The notes under the pieces are model-generated. The model did not search any database. It was not told where the DNA came from and saw only the letters and a program-made list of their open reading frames with translations. A program made the translations under genes and the position numbers. A stretch of 64,000 bases of DNA from a virus, in the UHGV virus genome UHGV-1351408. One strand, written 5' to 3'. How positions within the stretch are numbered: the stretch's first letter is position 1; every line of letters starts with the position of its first letter. Below are positions 4,394 through 48,312 of the stretch, piece after piece.

Positions 4394-5137
4394 TTAAATC
4401 TTCAGGATAGCTCTTAGCTTGCTCTCAAGGTCTGCAAGAGTACCATTATTATGAATAATGTCACGCTCATATTTTGTAGAAATACCATTTTCTGAAACAT
4501 GTGATGAAACTTTGTCCACATTGTCTCTTTTTACTTCAATGGTTTGGTGTGCAAATCTACTCAGCCACTCAGCTTCAGAGTCAAATCTTAAATCACTGAT
4601 TAAAACAACACCTTCTTGATTTCTAAGTGAGCAAACATCAAAGAAATTTACCATTCGTTTTTCGAGGTCTTTAGCCCAGAACTTGTCACCCAGAACTTTA
4701 CGGATAACTTCAGTGCCCCAAATCTGTTGAATTTGTCTTGATGAGAATTTATACTTTTTACTAAATCCCAGACGTGTTAATAGAGTCGGTTTAGCAACCT
4801 TCTTCAGTTCCATAATTAATCGTCCGGTTAACTCTGACATGAGTTTGAAGTCCGTATGATAACGTTCACCTCTGAAGGTAAACTCCATAGCTTCTGTGAC
4901 CTTGAACATCAGTTCAGAGTATGATAAATCAAAAACCTGTGGAGTCTCTTTAGTTTCACCGTACAGGTCATTCCAAGTTAAGTCAAATATCCTTGATGCA
5001 GAGAGTTTAAGGTTGTCTGCATAGGCCATTACTGCAACATTGTAGCCATACTCATCTTCTAGGATATTCTTCACAATAGAACATGAGGTGTCTTTTCCAG
5101 AACGTGCCTTTCCAGTAAATGCGATAATATTACTCAT
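4394..5137 (-). CDS. deoxynucleoside monophosphate kinase (T4 gp1-like)
   Basis: N-terminal P-loop IIAFTGKARSGKDT matches the dNMP kinase signature RSGKDT. Confidence 0.6.
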   Translation of the reverse strand: MSNIIAFTGKARSGKDTSCSIVKNILEDEYGYNVAVMAYADNLKLSASRIFDLTWNDLYGETKETPQVFDLSYSELMFKVTEAMEFTFRGERYHTDFKLMSELTGRLIMELKKVAKPTLLTRLGFSKKYKFSSRQIQQIWGTEVIRKVLGDKFWAKDLEKRMVNFFDVCSLRNQEGVVLISDLRFDSEAEWLSRFAHQTIEVKRDNVDKVSSHVSENGISTKYERDIIHNNGTLADLESKLRAILKI

Positions 5138-41284: not shown

Positions 41285-41360
41285 TGGAGAATCCGAAGGG
41301 ACTCGAACCCTTATAAACCTGTTTTGCAGACAGGCACATAGCCATTTCTGTCACGGATTC
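41285..41360 (-). tRNA. tRNA-Cys(GCA)
   Basis: Acceptor GAATCCG/CGGATTC, T-loop TTCGAGT, anticodon loop CTGCAAA, U73, CCA encoded. Confidence 0.7.
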
Positions 41361-41364
41361 AAAT

Positions 41365-41457
41365 TGGAGGAAGATACCAGACTTGAACTGGTACACCGAT
41401 TTCTCAGTTACTGGCAGTTTAGCAAACTGCTCCCTTACCTTTTAGGGTTAATCTTCC
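41365..41457 (-). tRNA. tRNA-Ser(GCT), long variable arm
   Basis: 93 nt; anticodon stem GCAGT/ACTGC, loop TTGCTAA. Confidence 0.6.
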
Positions 41458-41458
41458 A

Positions 41459-42193
41459 TTATTTCTGTAATGCGTTCTTCATTTCTGGTGTTGCAATAGT
41501 GTCAATCACACCAGTTTTACAAGCATCGTCAAACCAGTCTGGTAAGATACCTGCTAAGAACCCATTGATATTCGTTTTAAGGTACTCTGCAATAAGGGCA
41601 GCTTCTTCTTCAATCATCTGCACAACTTCATCTGCATAAGCTGTAATCTTCGAAATACCTTCATTAATCTTACTAACAGCTTGGTTAGCTAAATCAGAAA
41701 TAGTATCAAGACCTTTGTCAATAGCATCTTGTAAGTCACTTAATACATCATTAACACCGTCTAGTGCACTGTTAATCATATCAATAGCTTTTTGACCATA
41801 CTCTGTAGCAACACCCATAATACCACTAAATGGTGTACAACCGACTTGTTCACCTGCTGCACCCATAACATTAGAATAACCTTTTGCTACCTGCATACGT
41901 GATGAAAACTCATCAATGGACTTTTGACCGTAATCCGTCAGCGTTTTGGTAGTTGATGTAGTACTTGTCAGACTCGTTGTAAAGCTGTTAAGCAGAACTG
42001 TTGTAAGTCCAGCAGCAACAAGTTTATCCTTTATTGTAGGGTCTGTTACAGAGCTAATAGAGCTTACAAGTGATGTAGAGGCAGCTACGGTTCCACCGAG
42101 AACTGCTGCACCAGTAATAAGGGGATTAGAAAACCCTCTACCGGTTTTTAAGAGATTAAAAATCTCCTTACCTTGTTCTGTCATCTCTTTCAT
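41459..42193 (-). CDS. hypothetical Ser/Thr-rich protein inside the tRNA array
   Basis: ORF 41459-42256; start moved to MKEMTEQ (AAAGGTG RBS) to avoid tRNA-Phe. Confidence 0.45.
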   Translation of the reverse strand: MKEMTEQGKEIFNLLKTGRGFSNPLITGAAVLGGTVAASTSLVSSISSVTDPTIKDKLVAAGLTTVLLNSFTTSLTSTTSTTKTLTDYGQKSIDEFSSRMQVAKGYSNVMGAAGEQVGCTPFSGIMGVATEYGQKAIDMINSALDGVNDVLSDLQDAIDKGLDTISDLANQAVSKINEGISKITAYADEVVQMIEEEAALIAEYLKTNINGFLAGILPDWFDDACKTGVIDTIATPEMKNALQK

Positions 42194-42209
42194 TAAGCAC
42201 CTTTGAAAT

Positions 42210-42286
42210 TGGTAGTCCAGTGGGATTTGAACCCTCTTCTCATGTTTTTCAGACACGCGCTTTAACCATATAAGCTACTTGGACTA
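42210..42286 (-). tRNA. tRNA-Phe(GAA)
   Basis: Acceptor TAGTCCA/TGGACTA, anticodon loop CTGAAAA. Confidence 0.6.
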
Positions 42287-42291
42287 TAAAT

Positions 42292-42367
42292 TGGGGTGAC
42301 CTACGGGATTTGAACCCGTATAGACCATGTTCACAGCATGGGTCATTACCATTTATGATAAGGCCAC
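42292..42367 (-). tRNA. tRNA-His(GTG)
   Basis: Anticodon loop CTGTGAA; extra 5' G and C73. Confidence 0.7.
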
Positions 42368-42398
42368 ATTTAAGGACTCTCGTAAGAACCCTTAGAAG

Positions 42399-42474
42399 TG
42401 GCAGCGGCATAAGGATTTGAACCTTAATAAGACAGCTTCAGAGACTGCTGCATTGCCAGTTATGCTATACCGCT
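42399..42474 (-). tRNA. tRNA-Gln(CTG)
   Basis: Loop CTCTGAA, G73. Confidence 0.5.
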
Positions 42475-42479
42475 AAATT

Positions 42480-42558
42480 TGGTACTCCATATCGGATTCG
42501 AACCGATACATAACACAGATTTTAAGTCTGGCCTCTCTGCCAATTGGAGTAATGGAGC
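42480..42558 (-). tRNA. tRNA with Leu anticodon TAA, short variable arm
   Basis: 79 nt; loop CTTAAAA; Leu-type D-loop AATTGGCAGAG; A73. Confidence 0.5.
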
Positions 42559-42560
42559 AT

Positions 42561-42636
42561 TGGCGGGGGATGTTGGAATTGAACCAACTTCTTCGATTTC
42601 AAAGACCGAGGTTTTAACCTTGTAAACTAATCCCCT
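42561..42636 (-). tRNA. tRNA-Gln(TTG)
   Basis: Anticodon stem TCGGT/ATCGA, loop CTTTGAA, G73. Confidence 0.55.
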
Positions 42637-42644
42637 TTAAATCT

Positions 42645-43202
42645 TTACTTTCTTAGTGGATGAATAAAGAATGCCAACATAACTCTTTCCCTTGAGAATG
42701 CTCTTTCTTCTGGGACAACACTTTTTAGCTTCCACCCAATATAAATTCTCCAGTAAAACTGTTTACCAAAGACTTTAATTGATGGGATAAAAGCGAATAA
42801 TCCCCAAGCATTGCTGTTCCACATTAGGAGATAACCTGTCTGATTATCTTCAGGGTTAGAACTTACGTTGATATTACCTTTCCACTTAGTAACATCTTTT
42901 ACATCTCTTCCTAACACATGGTAAGAGAAGTTATAAGCTTTGTTTCTCCAGAGCCAACCAACTCTCTGCATATAGACACCAAGCTTACCAATCTTTCTAA
43001 TCTTAGCCCATCGTTCGATATGACCTTCATCACCATCAATTGGGTTGTCATAAGTTTCCATCCATCTGAACCCGAAAGGTAAGTGTCCTTTCTTCTCACT
43101 GTAGAATGGAACTACAAAAGGTGCTAAGATAACTGCTAAGATTGCTGCAAATGGCTCTAATAAAGCTAAGAAAATCCATGAAGCATACTTCAAATATCTC
43201 AT
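42645..43202 (-). CDS. membrane protein inside the tRNA array
   Basis: 185 aa; N-terminal hydrophobic segment WIFLALLEPFAAILAVILAPFVVPF. Confidence 0.45.
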   Translation of the reverse strand: MRYLKYASWIFLALLEPFAAILAVILAPFVVPFYSEKKGHLPFGFRWMETYDNPIDGDEGHIERWAKIRKIGKLGVYMQRVGWLWRNKAYNFSYHVLGRDVKDVTKWKGNINVSSNPEDNQTGYLLMWNSNAWGLFAFIPSIKVFGKQFYWRIYIGWKLKSVVPEERAFSRERVMLAFFIHPLRK

Positions 43203-43441
43203 TGTCTAATCCTAGTAAGGAGGTAAACATTATTATCTGTTTCTGAGTTTTCTGGTAAAGCTGTCTCAAAATTGACGCTTTTAAATTGTCTCCCACCAAA
43301 GTAATGACCAATAAATTTTTGTACTTTTATTGGGTCACATTCCCAGCCGACTTTCAAGAAAATGTGGGTATCTATAGTGGGAACCCTTACAAACTCAATA
43401 CTATTGGAATTTTCATGTTCAACGACGATTAATGTTTGCAT
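43199..43441 (-). CDS. hypothetical protein
   Basis: 80 aa. Confidence 0.4.
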   Translation of the reverse strand: MQTLIVVEHENSNSIEFVRVPTIDTHIFLKVGWECDPIKVQKFIGHYFGGRQFKSVNFETALPENSETDNNVYLLTRIRQ

Positions 43442-43459
43442 AAATCTCTCTTATTTATC

Positions 43460-43535
43460 TGGCGCAGGATAAGGGACTTGAACCCCTATTAACAGCTTCG
43501 TAGACTGTTGCTCTATCCATTTGAACTAATCCTGC
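43460..43535 (-). tRNA. tRNA-Arg(ACG)
   Basis: Acceptor GCAGGAT/ATCCTGC, loop CTACGAA. Confidence 0.7.
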
Positions 43536-43650
43536 TTACCTACGAGAACACCATACAGTTTTTCACAAACTTTGCTTTTACGTCTGTTTAGATATGACGC
43601 TCTAAACTTTTTTTGCAATTGACTTATTACTCATAGTGTTCTCCTAAAAT

Positions 43651-43728
43651 TGGTGTTCCAAGACGGATTCGAACCGTCACTAGTACAAGGTTTGAGCTTG
43701 CATCCTCTGCCAATTGGGATACTGGAAC
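43651..43728 (-). tRNA. tRNA with Leu anticodon CAA, short variable arm
   Basis: 78 nt; loop CTCAAAC; D-loop AATTGGCAGAGG; A73. Confidence 0.5.
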
Positions 43729-43729
43729 A

Positions 43730-43804
43730 TGGTACTCACTAAAGGACTTGAACCTTTTTCTTCATCTTGTAAGGGTGATGTTTTACCATATAAACTAAGC
43801 GAGT
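43730..43804 (-). tRNA. tRNA-Val(TAC)
   Basis: Loop CTTACAA. Confidence 0.5.
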
Positions 43805-43900
43805 GTGAAAGAGGTCTGAAGTTGTGCCACTAACTCAACTCCGTGGAATTTGTTACGGTCTTCAGTTGACTCAAAGTGGTCTTTCACTTGACCTCTGAAT

Positions 43901-43976
43901 TGGTGCTCCCACAAGGATTCGAACCCTGATAAGTTGCTTACAAGGCAACCGTAATAGCCAATTATACGATAGGAGC
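43901..43976 (-). tRNA. tRNA-Thr(TGT)
   Basis: Anticodon stem GTTGC/GCAAC, loop CTTGTAA. Confidence 0.7.
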
Positions 43977-43983
43977 ATTAATT

Positions 43984-44058
43984 TGGAGCATCCAGAGGGA
44001 ATCGAACCCTCAACCTCAGTTTGGAAGACTGTAATTTTCCCGTTTAAACTATGGATGC
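43984..44058 (-). tRNA. tRNA-Gly(TCC)
   Basis: Acceptor GCATCCA/TGGATGC, loop CTTCCAA. Confidence 0.65.
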
Positions 44059-44064
44059 ACTAAT

Positions 44065-44140
44065 TGGTGGAGTCACTGAGAATTGAACTCAGTTCCCAAG
44101 TTTGCAAAACTCGAATTTTAACCATATAAACTATGACCCC
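44065..44140 (-). tRNA. tRNA-Ala(TGC)
   Basis: Loop TTTGCAA. Confidence 0.6.
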
Positions 44141-44145
44141 AATTT

Positions 44146-44221
44146 TGGTACAGGTGGAGGGAATTGAACCCATCGTCTTACTGATTAAGAGTCAGCCGCA
44201 TAACCATTTTGCTACACCTGC
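44146..44221 (-). tRNA. tRNA-Lys(CTT)
   Basis: Loop CTCTTAA. Confidence 0.55.
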
Positions 44222-44228
44222 ATTAATT

Positions 44229-44305
44229 TGGTACACCTAGAGAGATTCGAACTCACACTGAGCAGATTCTAAGTCTGCTGCCTCTACCAATTGGGCTATA
44301 GGTGC
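44229..44305 (-). tRNA. tRNA with Leu anticodon TAG, short variable arm
   Basis: 77 nt; anticodon stem GCAGA/TCTGC, loop CTTAGAA; D-loop AATTGGTAGAGG; A73. Confidence 0.55.
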
Positions 44306-44560
44306 ATTAAATCTTTTTAGAGAACTTCTAAGAACCTAAGCAACAAGGTTCCACAACAAGCTGTAATAACCTTAGAAGCCCTCTAAAAAGACCTAATTTG
44401 GTCTTTGCATAGTCTTGTTTAATCCGGTGACTAGAACCTTTGGAGAGCTTGATATTATCTCTTCTCCGTGACACCTACTAGGTGCTTTATCAGTGTGTAC
44501 GACAATACACGAGGGATAAACCGAAAATGCGAGCAAGCATGGACGGTGTAAATCTTATTA

Positions 44561-44650
44561 GGCGGTAAGTAAAGGAGTCGAACCCTCACCGTATCTCTAC
44601 AGTGGCAACAGTTTTCAAGACTGTTTGGCTGCCATTAGCCGCTACCTACC
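44561..44650 (-). tRNA. tRNA-Ser(TGA), long variable arm
   Basis: 90 nt; anticodon stem ACAGT/ACTGT, loop CTTGAAA; 3' CC encoded, terminal A not. Confidence 0.6.
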
Positions 44651-44663
44651 CCTAATAAGACTT

Positions 44664-44746
44664 TGGCATGGGACGGAGGAGTTGAACCCCTTTGAAACGG
44701 TTTTGGAGGCCGTTGCTCATGCCTTAGAGTCTTAACATCGTCCCAC
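44664..44746 (-). tRNA. tRNA-like element, anticodon unassigned (CCA/Trp possible)
   Basis: 83 nt with good acceptor (GTGGGAC/GTCCCAT) and T-arm, but D/anticodon region does not fold canonically. Confidence 0.3.
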
Positions 44747-44888
44747 ATTATAATTCGAAGCTTACCGTATTATCTCAACACTGTAAAGCCCCTTCTCAGA
44801 TTATTTACATGTTCTGGAAAACATGAGATACAGACCACCTCCCTACAGGAAGACCCGCTTAGGTCGTCTAAGTAATCTGCTAACTAAT

Positions 44889-44965
44889 TGGCACACCCTA
44901 CAGGATTCGAACCTGTAACTAACGATTTAGAAGACCGTTGCTCTATCCAATTGAACTAAGGGTGC
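44889..44965 (-). tRNA. tRNA-Arg(TCT)
   Basis: Anticodon stem ACGGT/ATCGT, loop CTTCTAA. Confidence 0.7.
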
Positions 44966-45302
44966 ATTAATCTTTAAAGACTCTCTTAGAAAGCCCTTAA
45001 AGATGCCCACCTTATTAATCATACCGTGGGCTAGTACGCCAAATTCTTTGATGAGGGATTGGAATACCTCACTGGTGTTTAGCCTATCAAGCTACTGCCA
45101 GAAAAACATTGTCGTTTGCATTTATTTTAAATTTGCAAAATAGACGCTACGCAACGAAAACTATTCAGAATATGTACAACAAATTTCCCCACATTGTGTT
45201 ACGTCTAACGCTCATGTATTGGTGTTTGAATTATACATATTATGAATTATTTTTAGTTACTATAAAGTAGTCACATCTTAATGTCAACAACTTTATTGAA
45301 AT

Positions 45303-45378
45303 TGGTACTGGTAGGTGGAATCGAACCACCGATGTTCCCTTATCAGGGGAGTGTTATAACCTTCTTAACTATACCAGC
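45303..45378 (-). tRNA. tRNA-Ile(GAT)
   Basis: Loop CTGATAA. Confidence 0.6.
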
Positions 45379-45379
45379 T

Positions 45380-45456
45380 TGGAGGTTCAGATGGGAATCG
45401 AACCCACATTCATAGGGCTTATGAAACCCCTGCATTACCTTATCTGCGACTGAACC
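45380..45456 (-). tRNA. tRNA-Met(CAT)
   Basis: Loop TTCATAA; GGG/CCC run in anticodon stem. Confidence 0.55.
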
Positions 45457-45534
45457 ATAATAAGTACCCTAGTTAGAGAAACTGTTGAGTGGGTGTTTCC
45501 AGCCGCGCAGGTGTTTCTCAGTTAAGGGTGAATT

Positions 45535-45610
45535 TGGTAGAAGTGGAGGGATTCGAACCCATCGCCTGTCAGATTAAAAGTCTGCCGCATCACCATTCTG
45601 CTACACTTCC
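45535..45610 (-). tRNA. tRNA-Lys(TTT)
   Basis: Loop CTTTTAA. Confidence 0.6.
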
Positions 45611-45814
45611 ATTAAATTATCTTTGTAGATAAGCTACCCAGACTTGCTTAAGGTCTGTAGCGATGTGCCTTTTTGGGTTTAAATCTAGAATTTACCCTTT
45701 CACCCTTTGTGGTCGCATACTCACAGGTAAGCTTAATAACTTATCTACAAAGATAATTACCAGACCGTTGTTTATCATCTTAAGTGCTACCATTACACCA
45801 ACTCGACATCTGCC

Positions 45815-45838
45815 GAGTGAAGGAATCGAACCTTCGCC
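45815..45838 (-). other. isolated tRNA T-arm-like module (GAAGG-TTCGATT-CCTTC) without an acceptor stem
   Basis: Canonical T-arm, but no 5' partner for the would-be acceptor within 100 nt; lies inside a conserved-box spacer element. Confidence 0.35.
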
Positions 45839-46068
45839 TTTTCTTTACCGGAGAAATAGATTGTTTAAGTTTTGCTGTAAACGGTCTTCTGTAAATTTGT
45901 TGAGCCAGACCAAGTTTTAAATTTTTTCAAAATTAAATTGGCTTGAAAATATCATACGTACTTGCTGAATTTGGTCTTCTGCTCCTTTAAAGAATACTCG
46001 TAAGAACTCTTTAAGGGAGGGGCTAAATAGCCCTCTCAAAACATCATTTTGAAATACTTATTATAATT

Positions 46069-46145
46069 TGGCGGCTACGATGAGACTTGAACTCACATCA
46101 TCTCCCGTGACAGGGGAGTATTTTCTCCAGTTAAACTACATAGCC
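46069..46145 (-). tRNA. tRNA-Asp(GTC)
   Basis: Anticodon stem CTCCC/GGGAG, loop CTGTCAC. Confidence 0.7.
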
Positions 46146-46150
46146 TCTAT

Positions 46151-46238
46151 TGGTGTGCCGTGTAGGAGTCGAACCTACCGAGTCTCAATGACAAGGGATT
46201 TACAGTCCCCACCGCTACCATCTACGGGATAACGACAC
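46151..46238 (-). tRNA. tRNA-Tyr(GTA), long variable arm
   Basis: 88 nt; loop CTGTAAA. Confidence 0.7.
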
Positions 46239-46247
46239 ATTTTAATT

Positions 46248-46324
46248 TGGCGGTTAGTCAGGGATTCGAACCCTGTGCCATTCGCTTAACAGGCGACCGC
46301 ACATACCTTATGTGCTTCCTAACC
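46248..46324 (-). tRNA. tRNA-Asn(GTT)
   Basis: Loop CTGTTAA. Confidence 0.6.
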
Positions 46325-46400
46325 TTAATACATTACCAGACCGTGTTTTTCTTTTATCCGCAAAAAGTAGTTTGTTGCTGAATACGGTCTTCTGTAAAAT

Positions 46401-46477
46401 TGGAGGCGGGTGCAGGAGTCGAACCTGCCGATACCATGCTAATGAGACATGTGAGACGCCCTTTCTCTATACCCGCA
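46401..46477 (-). tRNA. tRNA with CAT anticodon (Met or Ile2)
   Basis: Loop CTCATTA; 1-72 mismatch. Confidence 0.45.
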
Positions 46478-46568
46478 ATTCTTAATGACCAGACCAAATC
46501 TCTTCTTTGTCCGATTTACCTTCAGATGAATAAGATTAAGTTTGCTGTAATTGGTCTTCTGTCAAAAC

Positions 46569-46646
46569 TGGCGTTCCAGAAGGGATTTGAACCCTCAGAT
46601 ATCCACTTTGAAAGAGTGGTGACTTTACCATTTTGTCTACTGGAAC
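46569..46646 (-). tRNA. tRNA-Glu(TTC)
   Basis: Anticodon stem CCACT/AGTGG, loop CTTTCAA. Confidence 0.7.
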
Positions 46647-46653
46647 ATTAATT

Positions 46654-46730
46654 TGGTCTCTGTTGGAGGACTTGAACCTCCGGCCTTACCGCCCCAAACG
46701 GAACGCTCTACCAAGCTGAGCTAAACAGAG
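46654..46730 (-). tRNA. tRNA-Pro(TGG)
   Basis: D-arm AGCTCAGCTTGGTAGAGC, loop TTTGGGG. Confidence 0.7.
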
Positions 46731-46896: not shown

Positions 46897-48312
46897 TTAC
46901 CAGATGTAACGGTCAAGCATTACTGCTTTGAGCATTACGCTGATTGGGTCAAACTTCTCACCACCAAGCAGAGCTTTTAAAGTGGCTGGAGAGAACCCTG
47001 ATACCATTGCTACACCATTATCCTTAACAGATACTTCGCAAGTACCATTACGGTTTGCTAAGTACCAGAATACTAGTTGTGGCATTTCGTATCCAGCTTT
47101 TTTGTACTTACTCTGAATTGCTTCAAAGTTTGTACGACCATTTGCACCATCAACCTGATTAAACTCCATATCAGAGAAGATAATAAGCTTACTTGGCATA
47201 TCTTTCTGAGTCAAGTTGTTTCTCTTACCTGTTTCAAGAATGCGGTCAAAAGCTGCTTGTAAGTTAGTTGAGCCATATTCAACGTGTCGCATCACCTGAC
47301 GATGACGGTTTCGTAAATCACCACTCAGTTCGATGAAGTGAGGGTTTGTTGAATAAACCATTAACTCATTCTTAAAGCAACCTGTATTGCGTTCTGCTAC
47401 ATACAAGGCAAGTGATACACCAATATCCAGAGCAGTAATGGAGCCAAAATTCACCCAAGACATTGAACTTGATACATCAGACATACACAAGATGTTTTCA
47501 CCTTCTGCCATCCAGTTTGGTAGTGCTTTCCACTGCTCATTAGCAACATCTGCATTACCATACTTGACAGATTTAATCACATCGTATGGGTAAACAGCAC
47601 CAGCGTTAATCTTAGTCTCACCTTTTGATAAGGACTCGATGTAAGCTTTGTAACGCTCTCCATCTTTACGGTTAAACAGTTTTTGGTAACGTGCAGCAGC
47701 AAGTGAAGGAATCTTACTGTAGTCAATCTTACCAAACTCATTAGCAGAGATTTTTTGCTCAACTGTATCAGATAGTGCAGACAACAGTGTGCGGTACTCT
47801 TTCTCACTCAAGTTGGCAAACTTGCAGAAACGTTTTACAAACTGCTTATGACGTGGTTTGACTCGTGGCAACCACTTAGCCGCCAAACCTGCTGTTGCAG
47901 GGTCTAGTAATGCTGCTTCTAAATGTTTGAAGGCATCTGTCTCGAAACGAGTACCTACGAAGATTTTGAAGTCATCAAAACGACCAAGTTCTGCAATCTT
48001 ATCCATAATGCGAAGAACCTGCGTAGACTCTAAAACTTTGTCTTCAATTGCTTGAAGCAAAACAGTTCTGAAGGCTTTACGCTCACCCATACCTTCTCGT
48101 ACATCTCGCATATGAAGCAAAATACGAACTGCAACATCAACATCCTCACGCAAAGCTTTGTAGAACAGGTCTGGTAAGATTTCTACGTTGCTACGGCTTG
48201 AACCAGCAGCTTTGTAAAAGTCTACAAGAGCAGACATTGATGAAGTATGGTTTACAGCACCATTTTCAGTTCGACCTGCATGAAGGTGCGCATGTTTAAA
48301 TAATTCGCTCAT
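46897..48312 (-). CDS. vWA-domain protein with MIDAS motif (possibly Ro60/TROVE-like)
   Basis: 471 aa; helical N-terminal part; C-terminal vWA features: DxSxS (CMSDVSSSMS), later STN and FSDME. Confidence 0.6.
   Translation of the reverse strand: MSELFKHAHLHAGRTENGAVNHTSSMSALVDFYKAAGSSRSNVEILPDLFYKALREDVDVAVRILLHMRDVREGMGERKAFRTVLLQAIEDKVLESTQVLRIMDKIAELGRFDDFKIFVGTRFETDAFKHLEAALLDPATAGLAAKWLPRVKPRHKQFVKRFCKFANLSEKEYRTLLSALSDTVEQKISANEFGKIDYSKIPSLAAARYQKLFNRKDGERYKAYIESLSKGETKINAGAVYPYDVIKSVKYGNADVANEQWKALPNWMAEGENILCMSDVSSSMSWVNFGSITALDIGVSLALYVAERNTGCFKNELMVYSTNPHFIELSGDLRNRHRQVMRHVEYGSTNLQAAFDRILETGKRNNLTQKDMPSKLIIFSDMEFNQVDGANGRTNFEAIQSKYKKAGYEMPQLVFWYLANRNGTCEVSVKDNGVAMVSGFSPATLKALLGGEKFDPISVMLKAVMLDRYIW

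Follow-up and report, generated by a model that had tools for sequence, protein, structure and literature searches.

Transfer RNAs (tRNAs) specific for tryptophan are recognized in Escherichia coli by tryptophanyl-tRNA synthetase (TrpRS) through an identity set made up of the anticodon C34-C35-A36 and the discriminator G73. Felix O1-like phages, to which Bas63 belongs, are a classic group for typing, for biocontrol and as models, and are routinely described with tRNAs for 19 amino acids; for the Mooglevirus Sf14, tRNAscan-SE 2.0 gave '26 tRNAs, 19 amino acids' (PMC12482277). A different kind of tRNA-like molecule is represented by Y RNAs of the YrlA type, in which the two ends pair into a Ro60-binding stem, the parts of the tRNA-like domain follow a permuted order and a loop closes the acceptor-like stem; they are encoded in the same orientation as the Ro60 gene, at a distance of up to about 4 kb (Chen et al. 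2014, PMC4201824). Our analysis concerns an element of 83 nucleotides (nt) in UHGV virus genome UHGV-1351408, a stretch of 64,000 nt referred to here as the window. The window is a Felixounavirus segment with 96-98.5% identity to many Escherichia and Salmonella Felix O1-like phages. Its tRNA cluster, on the minus strand at 41285-46730, comprises 26 tRNA genes for 19 amino acids according to ARAGORN, 24 of which are also detected by Rfam at the gathering threshold; tryptophan is the only amino acid for which ARAGORN detects no tRNA in the cluster.

We propose that the element, named Trp* in the following, is probably the phage's own tRNA-Trp(CCA), functional but non-canonical, which descended from an ordinary tRNA-Trp and was remodelled in its core. 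In none of the 60 records listed does a tRNA annotation cover it; the features given there are 'none', 'hypothetical protein' or 'promoter'. Searches of the literature yielded no account of Trp*, and the Ounavirinae form is, as far as we found, undescribed as well as unannotated in the records seen.

Structure of the element

On the minus strand, the 83 nt of Trp* (44664-44746) read GUGGGACGAUGUUAAGACUCUAAGGCAUGAGCAACGGCCUCCAAAACCGUUUCAAAGGGGUUCAACUCCUCCGUCCCAUGCCA; divided into its parts, the sequence is GUGGGAC GA UGUUAAG ACUC UAAGGCAU GAGC A ACGGC CUCCAAA ACCGU U UCAA AGGGG UUCAACU CCUCC GUCCCAU G CCA. A first-pass annotation made from the letters of the window had recorded a perfect acceptor of 7 base pairs (bp), a T arm and an encoded CCA. 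The last two stand, with a UUCAACU loop and a discriminator G preceding the CCA; the acceptor strands GUGGGAC/GUCCCAU are also present, but the stem is not strictly perfect, pair 1-72 being a G.U wobble in the variant of the window. Further features of a canonical tRNA are the UUCRANY form of the T loop and G18/G19 in the D loop. All lengths 3' of the D arm are canonical, namely 1 nt at position 26, 17 nt in the anticodon arm, 5 nt in the variable region, 17 nt in the T arm and 7 nt in the acceptor strand, followed by G73 and CCA.

Trp* deviates from a normal tRNA in the insertion UGUUAAG, in G8, which stands in place of U8, and in three A.C oppositions located where helices end (A10.C25, C31.A39, A49.C65). 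Together with G8 and A9 the insertion forms a connector, GAUGUUAAG, of 9 nt, compared with the canonical two nucleotides (positions 8-9). G8 (44739) can pair with C65 (44675), which would give an 8/4 acceptor/T arrangement, and an acceptor of 8 bp is drawn by both the minimum-free-energy structure and RNAalifold; this pair is invariant, so that the arrangement is putative. On first pass, the D and anticodon region was said not to fold as a standard cloverleaf; standard detectors fail on it, and a D arm exists (a 3-bp CUC/GAG stem with T-A to A-T compensation and a GG loop), displaced by the insertion. The stem AACGG/CCGUU around a 9-nt loop, CCUCCAAAA, is present as described. In the secondary structure the loop has 9 nt because positions 31 and 39 remain unpaired (C.A or C.C, never a pair); its inside, however, is an ordinary tRNA-Trp loop, Y32-U33-CCA-A37-M38.

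Conservation and covariation of the fold

Trp* is present in 236 phage records of several Ounavirinae genera: Felixounavirus (including Felix O1, L149:2934-3016), Mooglevirus, Suspvirus and unclassified Pectobacterium Ounavirinae. Eleven distinct variants were recovered, ten of which constitute the alignment (A3) used for the pair counts. Since folding of the single sequence is uninformative (z = -1.5), the case rests on comparative data. On the proposed structure, 99.5% of the cells of the alignment are paired, and 8 of the 20 pairs show double, compensatory changes, some of them in each of the four helices. The score for covariation, 0.374, is reached by 0 of 500 shuffled alignments (0.165), and it drops to about 0 to 0.06 when the partners are slid by 1-3 columns. 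The RNAalifold consensus arrives independently at the proposed fold.

Covariation in the acceptor stem concerns pairs 1-72 (AU, GU or GC) and 2-71 (UA or CG). The middle pair of the D stem is U-A in five variants and A-U in the other five, and the anticodon stem occurs in the versions AACGG/CCGUU, GUAAG/CUUAC and GUAGG/CCUAC, with double compensatory changes in four of its five pairs. Positions 31 and 39 do not pair in any variant; instead, 26-44 pairs and covaries as A-U, G.U or G-C. In the T stem, pair 50-64 changes from G-C to U-A in Mooglevirus. An alternative D helix that would use the insertion (AUGUU/GGCAU) was rejected: it is paired in 98% of the cells, with wobble changes only, no double change and one mismatch, and because it is sterically incompatible with the covarying CUC/GAG stem it is at most a minor alternative.

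U33, the CCA anticodon, A37, G18G19, the UUCRA of the T loop, G73 and the CCA end are invariant, anticodon and G73 being unchanged in all 11 Ounavirinae variants, and positions 32 and 38 vary. Accordingly, the 9-nt loop is found as CCUCCAAAA, as CUUCCAACA (Felix O1) and as CUUCCAAAC (Pectobacterium phages, with Arno162 among them), and the T loop as UUC(A/G)A(C/A)U. Judged from these variants, the pattern of loop conservation is that expected of a decoding anticodon loop. The connector with its insertion is nearly invariant, with one U-to-C change (PC79-13) and two extra nt, giving an 11-nt connector, in Pectobacterium phages. Overall identity of Trp* to its relatives is 85-92%, compared with 88-97% for the flanking tRNAs; in the comparison with the Pectobacterium phage Arno162, Trp* has 74% and tRNA-Arg 65% identity. 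The long upstream spacer has diverged far more in most comparisons, with an identity of 43-51% in five out of seven loci. To judge from the comparison of sequences, Trp* is a selected RNA structure, neither a chance fold nor a pseudogene.

Homology to tRNA-Trp

A covariance model (R1) was built from the Trp* variants and searched against about 0.8 Mb of fetched loci. It scores Trp* at 111 bits; the next-best matches beyond Trp* copies are canonical tRNA-Trp(CCA) genes with 36-39 bits and, at 36.5 bits, the gene that is annotated as tRNA-Trp in Erwinia phage Pistou. These genes align to the model from position 1 to the CCA with exactly one gap of 7 nt, which falls between position 9 and the D stem. 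On account of this end-to-end alignment with its single gap, Trp* is best described as a tRNA-Trp with a conserved UGUUAAG insertion. Two readings offered on first pass, an unusual Trp(CCA) tRNA and a tRNA with an insertion, turn out to denote the same thing, and the only amino acid missing in the cluster is the one in question; the third, a tRNA-like regulatory RNA, is the less supported alternative. That Trp* is a conserved, structurally constrained derivative of tRNA-Trp we consider very probable. A short-intron, spliced reading was rejected, because the insertion is conserved as sequence; moreover, we know of no bacterial mechanism for splicing such a short tRNA intron.

The tRNA-Trp of Pistou (of the sister genus Kolesnikvirus), which has canonical length, already contains a CGGC-CUCCAAA-ACCG arm with C31.A39. 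The C31.A39 arm therefore predates the insertion. The two genes occupy different places: in Pistou the gene sits between those for Gly and Thr, whereas Trp* follows tRNA-Arg(TCT), and the Gly/Thr slot is empty in the window. Just after the tRNA-Arg(TCT) of Pistou, in the syntenic position, lies an odd tRNA-like sequence (L011:4167-4252) with an acceptor stem, a T arm and CCA, whose middle part is not an anticodon arm; it scores 20.7 bits on R1. A pattern scan of metagenomes returned 120 loci, all but one of which are canonical tRNA-Trp or unrelated according to the covariance model. The exception (L136) is an identical Felixounavirus copy, and no more distant relatives bearing the insertion came from that scan.

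Detection and genomic context

At the boundaries of Trp*, ARAGORN in its default mode gives no credible call of a standard tRNA. Its intron and relaxed modes produce implausible calls only, which were discarded (a 131-nt Trp with a 55-nt intron, Pyl, Gly). The metazoan-mitochondrial mode calls the element mtRNA-Trp(cca), and this we count for the Trp reading. Covariance models did not reveal a standard cloverleaf either, the outcome that the first-pass annotation had named as refuting it. Standard gene finders overlook Trp* because of the 7 additional bases that separate its acceptor and D stems. Given that the published count for Sf14 matches the cluster seen here, tRNAscan-SE 2.0 also misses the element, assuming that Sf14 carries Trp* like Sf13 and Sf17. 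The features of the locus are listed in Table 1.

Table 1. Coordinates of Trp*, its parts and neighbouring features in the window.
Feature	Position	Strand	Remarks
Trp*, whole tRNA-Trp(CCA) gene (proposed)	44664..44746	-	83 nt including encoded CCA
Encoded 3' CCA	44664-44666	-	discriminator G at 44667
T arm AGGGG-UUCAACU-CCUCC	44675..44691	-	4 paired positions and conserved A49.C65 mismatch
Anticodon arm including paired 26-44	44697..44714	-	AACGG/CCGUU, 5 Watson-Crick pairs
9-nt loop CCUCCAAAA	44701-44709	-	enclosed by AACGG/CCGUU
Anticodon CCA	44704-44706	-	within the 9-nt loop
D arm ACUC-UAAGGCAU-GAGC	44715..44730	-	3-bp CUC/GAG stem, A10.C25 mismatch, G18/G19 in loop
7-nt insertion UGUUAAG between position 9 and D stem	44731..44737	-	gap in covariance-model alignment
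Acceptor stem, 5' strand GUGGGAC	44740..44746	-	pairs with 44668-44674 (GUCCCAU)
Spacer between Trp* and tRNA-Ser(TGA), AAGUCUUAUUAGG	44651..44663	-	13 nt, 13/13 identical in 6 loci (Mooglevirus, Suspvirus, related)
Downstream neighbour, tRNA-Ser(TGA)	44561..44650	-	ARAGORN/Rfam
Upstream neighbour, canonical tRNA-Arg(TCT)	44889..44965	-	ARAGORN/Rfam
Best sigma-70-like promoter upstream, TTGACA-17-TATAGT	45259..45287	-	11/12, consensus scan only
Candidate YrlA-type Y RNA, between tRNA-Asp and tRNA-Lys(TTT)	~45762-45887	-	layout and covariation
Ro60-like open reading frame (ORF)	46897-48312	-	471 amino acids, Pfam DUF2828 and DUF7788, directly upstream of cluster

The sigma-70-like promoter of Table 1 would probably drive the sub-cluster of tRNA-Arg(TCT), Trp*, tRNA-Ser(TGA) and onward. 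It lies upstream of tRNA-Arg(TCT), and a scan of 44200-45400 found no terminator-like site; co-transcription of Trp* with the cluster is therefore plausible. A weak promoter-like site (44750-44778, minus strand; TTGAGA-17-AATTAT or TATAAT/TATAGT) ends at position 1 of Trp*; it is conserved across genera and labelled 'promoter' in one record. On the downstream side, GUCUUA of the spacer is complementary to UAAGAC, which spans the edge of insertion and D stem. The duplex has -7.4 kcal/mol, a value reached by 34 of 2000 shuffled trailers, and may represent a pairing peculiar to the precursor or a signal for processing.

Some further observations concern the surroundings of the element. The spacer upstream of Trp* contains an 18-nt motif, GGAGGTGGTCTGTATCTC (44825-44842, minus strand), which is also found in a tRNA-cluster spacer of the distantly related Pistou (L011 ~4623-4640); in the window it is followed by a hairpin CATGTT...AACATG. 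Between tRNA-Ile and tRNA-Arg(TCT) (44966-45155, minus strand), sub-threshold matches to transfer-messenger RNA (tmRNA, 14.9 bits) and permuted tmRNA (20.3 bits) probably occurred by chance. In the Felix O1 reference cluster (L149, NC_005282 23600-30300), ARAGORN finds 25 tRNAs, compared with 22 in the published table; the surplus includes Met, Ser(TGA) and Ser(GCT), and three HNH endonuclease genes lie among the tRNA genes. Stop codons of the 55 long ORFs in the window are TAA (45), TGA (9) and TAG (1).

Other Trp alleles and the expanded-connector architecture

A different gene of 71 nt for Trp(CCA) occupies the same locus in 23 Ounavirinae records. Its annotation varies between tRNA-Trp (the label in five records), tRNA-OTHER/pseudo and nothing, and no record seen contains both this allele and Trp*. 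The locus thus behaves as 'the Trp slot'. The wV8-type allele (L010:475-545) shares with Trp* its position, the conserved upstream sequence, the CCA anticodon, G73, the CCA end and a non-canonical D region. In contrast to Trp*, it falls short of normal tRNA length, its D arm and the 5' side of its anticodon stem being reduced, and it possesses a canonical 5-bp T stem. Where Trp* is followed by tRNA-Ser(TGA), the wV8 allele is followed by a gene similar to the Felix O1 HNH endonuclease, which suggests that a homing endonuclease drove the exchange of alleles.

Viral contigs (IMG/VR) were scanned for the Trp-type signature of anticodon arm and T arm, which yielded 120 loci (L154-L273). ARAGORN calls tRNA-Trp(CCA) in 104 of these and misses 16, two of which are Bacillus phage genes (L229 comes from BCP8-2). 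Several of the missed loci resemble further non-canonical Trp tRNAs, for instance L223 with its shortened D region, and L220 and L262 apparently have no 5' acceptor strand within 70 nt.

An expanded-connector tRNA-Trp of 84 nt is carried by about 40 Bacillus phage records, which belong to Herelleviridae (Caeruleovirus, Tsarbombavirus), Joanripponvirinae and Andregratiavirinae. The loci (L229, L254, L274-L280) include those of BCP8-2, TsarBomba, Bc431v3, BM15, Kirov, Chewbecca, JBP901 and Thrax4. On R1 these genes score 33-51 bits without a connector gap, so that the best of them exceed the canonical tRNA-Trp matches. Their helices show compensatory changes as well: the D stem from GAC/GUC to GGC/GCC, pair 31-39 from U-A to A-U, and the T stem from AGAGG/CCUCC to AUGCG/CGCAC. 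Some records annotate the gene as tRNA-Trp, and often it is unannotated; the annotated cluster of Thrax4, which has 22 tRNAs, contains no Trp tRNA besides it.

A Ro60-like protein and a YrlA-like RNA in the same cluster

For the ORF directly upstream of the tRNA cluster, the structural model (predicted local distance difference test score 88.8) has Ro60/TROVE proteins as its top 11 matches in the PDB, with E-values from 5e-9 to 4e-7, and the proteins matched include Ro60 of the Thermus phage phiLo; a Ro60-like fold is hence predicted. The ORF is the ortholog of gp130 of Bas63, a protein with Ro60-like structure for which counter-defence against ppl was reported in a preprint (PMC11482910). Homologs are found in about 700 phage records, and in the examined cases (Ounavirinae, Thrax4) the gene adjoins the tRNA array. 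The authors of PhageMaP speculate that some of the 'tRNA genes' of Bas63 are Y RNAs (PMC11482910).

Such an RNA may be encoded between tRNA-Asp and tRNA-Lys(TTT). In this candidate, AGACCGUU and AACGGUCU make up the outer stem; the other elements are a V hairpin, a T arm with the sequence GAAGG-UUCGAUU-CCUUC, a loop-closed acceptor-like hairpin of 7 bp and a D arm reading GUGU-AAUGGUA-GCAC. It is conserved in 253 phage records. The acceptor-like hairpin covaries (ACUCG/CGAGU, ACACG/CGUGU, ACCCUUC/GAAGGGU), and the T and D arms are invariant. In most of the records listed the RNA is unannotated or lies under a hypothetical protein or a neighbouring tRNA, and one record labels it 'tRNA-Thr'; the sole Rfam signal is a partial tRNA match at 45818-45868. 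It is likely the partner of the Ro60-like protein.

Alternative explanations

With a Ro60-like gene nearby, Trp* could be a non-translational tRNA mimic that serves the Ro60-like protein as a Y-RNA-like partner, preferred substrate or decoy and aids anti-defence. The Ro60/TROVE+vWA fold predicted for the upstream ORF, the activity of gp130 against ppl and the speculation about Y RNAs in Bas63 (PMC11482910) are in line with this idea, as are the non-canonical core, the invariant single-stranded connector, and an analogous Trp gene about 2.5 kb from a DUF2828 gene in Joanripponvirinae Bacillus phages. Trp* lies about 2.2 kb downstream of the Ro60-like gene on the same strand and hence inside the 4-kb rule (PMC4201824), but this does not discriminate, because the same holds for every tRNA of the cluster. 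Furthermore, Trp* is devoid of a Y-RNA module: its ends form an ordinary acceptor stem with G73-CCA, it is not permuted, its anticodon loop is conserved, and the RNA described in the previous section is a much better YrlA-like candidate. The architecture and the Ro60-like gene co-occur in Ounavirinae and Joanripponvirinae, and the 28 Bacillus records with a Ro60-like gene, a complete list, belong to Joanripponvirinae or a few other phages. About 24 listed Bacillus records with the Trp architecture, mostly Herelleviridae, are absent from that list, however, and at three viral loci with such a gene in the vicinity the tRNA-Trp is of the canonical form. The expanded connector is therefore independent of the Ro60-like protein, and we judge the mimic hypothesis quite improbable. 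Somewhat less so, albeit still unlikely, is a role in conflict: a tRNA-Trp remodelled to escape or decoy a host factor that targets or senses tRNA-Trp, for instance a tRNA nuclease, an acetyltransferase toxin or the effector of a retron or another defence; decoding of UGG would be optional. That phage tRNAs neutralize tRNA-targeting defences is documented (van den Berg 2023, eLife; Azam 2024, Nat Commun), and the retron Eco2 nicks the acceptor stems of tRNAs in vitro, tRNA-Trp included (PMC12916289). In addition, unrelated lineages of phages have retained this unusual architecture for Trp in particular, Ounavirinae and other phages contain three distinct non-canonical alleles for Trp, and the 16 viral genes mentioned above escape ARAGORN. 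Yet no Trp-specific defence nuclease was identified here, and a role in conflict overlaps with the explanation of Trp* as a functional tRNA-Trp rather than excluding it.

Two further possibilities concern decoding itself and its loss. In the Hirsh suppressor, D-arm changes in E. coli tRNA-Trp (G24A; also A9C) permit the reading of UGA with an unchanged anticodon. By analogy, which provides a lead only, the altered D-arm region or expanded loop of Trp* might allow UGA or quadruplet reading besides UGG; the insertion adjoins position 9 and the D stem, and among the long ORFs of the window a second in-frame stop directly follows 3 of 9 TGA stops versus 6 of 45 TAA stops. This excess of tandem stops comes from a very small sample and is not significant, though, and UGA is the normal stop of 9 of the 55 long ORFs. 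Neither an in-frame UGA nor a frameshift site was identified; the functional loop of Trp* has the standard 7 nt with U33 and A37 conserved, and in the Bacillus analogues pair 31-39 closes a fully canonical loop of 7 nt. Recoding thus appears very unlikely to us. As for a decaying, functionless tRNA-Trp, tRNA finders do miss Trp*, a Bacillus analogue was scored as a possible pseudogene, and three helix-end mismatches and the insertion could be read as signs of decay. A pseudogene, however, should show relaxed constraint and faster divergence, and the opposite is seen: compensatory changes occur in four helices, identity across genera equals that of the functional neighbours, the insertion itself is nearly invariant even at 74% overall identity, and the element persists in 236 records. 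We hence regard decay as the least probable of the explanations considered.

Several points nevertheless weigh against the interpretation of Trp* as a functional tRNA-Trp. With three conserved A.C mismatches (10.25, 31.39, 49.65) and an insertion in its tertiary core, Trp* might bind less well to EF-Tu or the ribosome. The Rfam tRNA model RF00005 gives no match to Trp* at its gathering threshold (29 bits) or at E<=10, and the sole Rfam match is the selenocysteine tRNA (tRNA-Sec) model RF01852 with 23 bits, below its gathering threshold of 47 bits. A tRNA-Sec identity was itself rejected owing to this score, the anticodon CCA and the lack of a long variable arm. One Bacillus record of the 84-nt gene bears the remark 'tRNAscan-SE 1.21 score 19.55; possible pseudogene'. 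The -10-like box upstream abuts position 1 of Trp*, and transcripts from this site would, if it is active, begin within the acceptor stem. That the insertion is so strongly conserved may point to some function in addition to ordinary decoding. Finally, the tRNA genes of Bas63 are mostly non-essential in laboratory hosts (PMC11482910).

A model for function and its implications

As a functional tRNA-Trp, Trp* would be transcribed from the minus strand within the polycistronic tRNA cluster, cut by ribonuclease P at position 1 (44746) and trimmed at its 3' end to the encoded CCA. The helices, which are supported by covariation, would be arranged in an L-shape of normal dimensions. In this geometry the stack of acceptor and T stems would have 12 layers (7 bp, then A49.C65 or G8-C65, then 4 bp), and the anticodon helix six (the Watson-Crick pair 26-44, four pairs and the unpaired C31.A39), leaving a standard decoding loop of 7 nt, Y32-U33-C34-C35-A36-A37-M38. 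The GG of the D loop could dock on the UUCRANY T loop. The only anomaly in length is the conserved 7-nt loop-out UGUUAAG, which lies between position 9 and the 3-bp D stem. Host TrpRS would charge the molecule via CCA and G73, UGG would be read, and the tRNA set of the phage would cover all 20 amino acids. That Trp* is indeed charged and decodes UGG seems to us, on balance, a fair expectation.

If this model is correct, the tRNA set of Felix O1-like phages is complete, hundreds of GenBank records are short of one tRNA gene, and analyses of tRNA adaptation or codon usage that assume no phage tRNA-Trp need correction. Trp* would also be a natural test of how far remodelling of the acceptor/D junction is tolerated, as it combines a loop-out of 7 nt and G8 with three A.C mismatches and the lack of a 31/39 pair; such tolerance bears on the rules of tRNA structure, on the design of gene finders and on the engineering of orthogonal tRNAs. 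The recurrence of the architecture in unrelated phages, and specifically for Trp, together with the other non-canonical Trp alleles, suggests a Trp-specific selective pressure in phage-host conflict. Going further, the expanded-connector tRNA-Trp might constitute a distinct, recurrent class of phage tRNAs, found in Gram-negative Ounavirinae and at least three lineages of Bacillus phages, whose conserved loop-out of 7-9 nt beside position 9 and the D stem confers a specialised property; we put this forward tentatively, and as rather doubtful. Candidate properties for such a class are resistance to, or decoy function against, a host defence or sensor directed at tRNA-Trp, Hirsh-like decoding of UGA, and a handle for an RNA-binding protein of the phage, for instance the Ro60-like gp130. 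Apart from Trp*, the presence of a Ro60-like protein and a YrlA-like RNA in one cluster offers a concrete candidate for the 'Y RNA' speculated on by the PhageMaP authors.

Comparison with known systems

Y RNAs of the YrlA type resemble Trp* in their tRNA-like T and D arms and in their location near a Ro60-like gene on the same strand. They differ in their permuted order, the loop-closed acceptor-like stem and the Ro60-binding end stem; Trp* has none of these, whereas the candidate RNA upstream has all of them. With the allo-tRNAs of the 8/4 or 9/3 type (Mukai et al. 2017, PMC5389517) and with tRNA-Sec (8/5), Trp* shares a possible 8-bp acceptor combined with a 4-bp T stem, which amounts to 12 stacked pairs. 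Unlike these, it has neither a long variable arm (5 nt only) nor an extended D stem, and its anticodon is CCA. Membership in the allo-tRNAs is defined by a 12-bp branch split 8/4 together with a long variable arm, a combination that Trp* does not show, and G8-C65 is not kept as such in the Bacillus analogues (A8).

The 84-nt tRNA-Trp of phages of the Bacillus cereus group (BCP8-2, TsarBomba, Bc431v3, Kirov, Thrax and Chewbecca) is similar to Trp* in its 7-bp acceptor, the 3-bp D stem with GG loop, the conserved A49.C65, G73 and the encoded CCA, and most of the seven aligned members have G1.U72, like the variant of the window. Its connector, AGAARCUUWAW, has 11 nt versus 9 nt in Trp* (10 when A10 is counted) and is unlike that of Trp* in sequence except for a UU(A/U)A core. 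Moreover, the phages infect Gram-positive hosts, and in their anticodon arm a 31-39 pair that covaries closes a loop of 7 nt. Because this arm is fully canonical, an expanded connector can occur apart from an unpaired 31/39.

A further close likeness is to canonical tRNA-Trp(CCA), as in E. coli trpT and Pistou. Trp* has in common with these genes the xGGy-CUCCAAA-rCCx arm, G73, a variable region of 5 nt, the T loop and the encoded CCA; most Trp* variants also share A1-U72, and Pistou shares C31.A39 as well. What sets Trp* apart from them are 7 extra nt, a 3-bp D stem with A10.C25, G8 instead of U8, and A49.C65.

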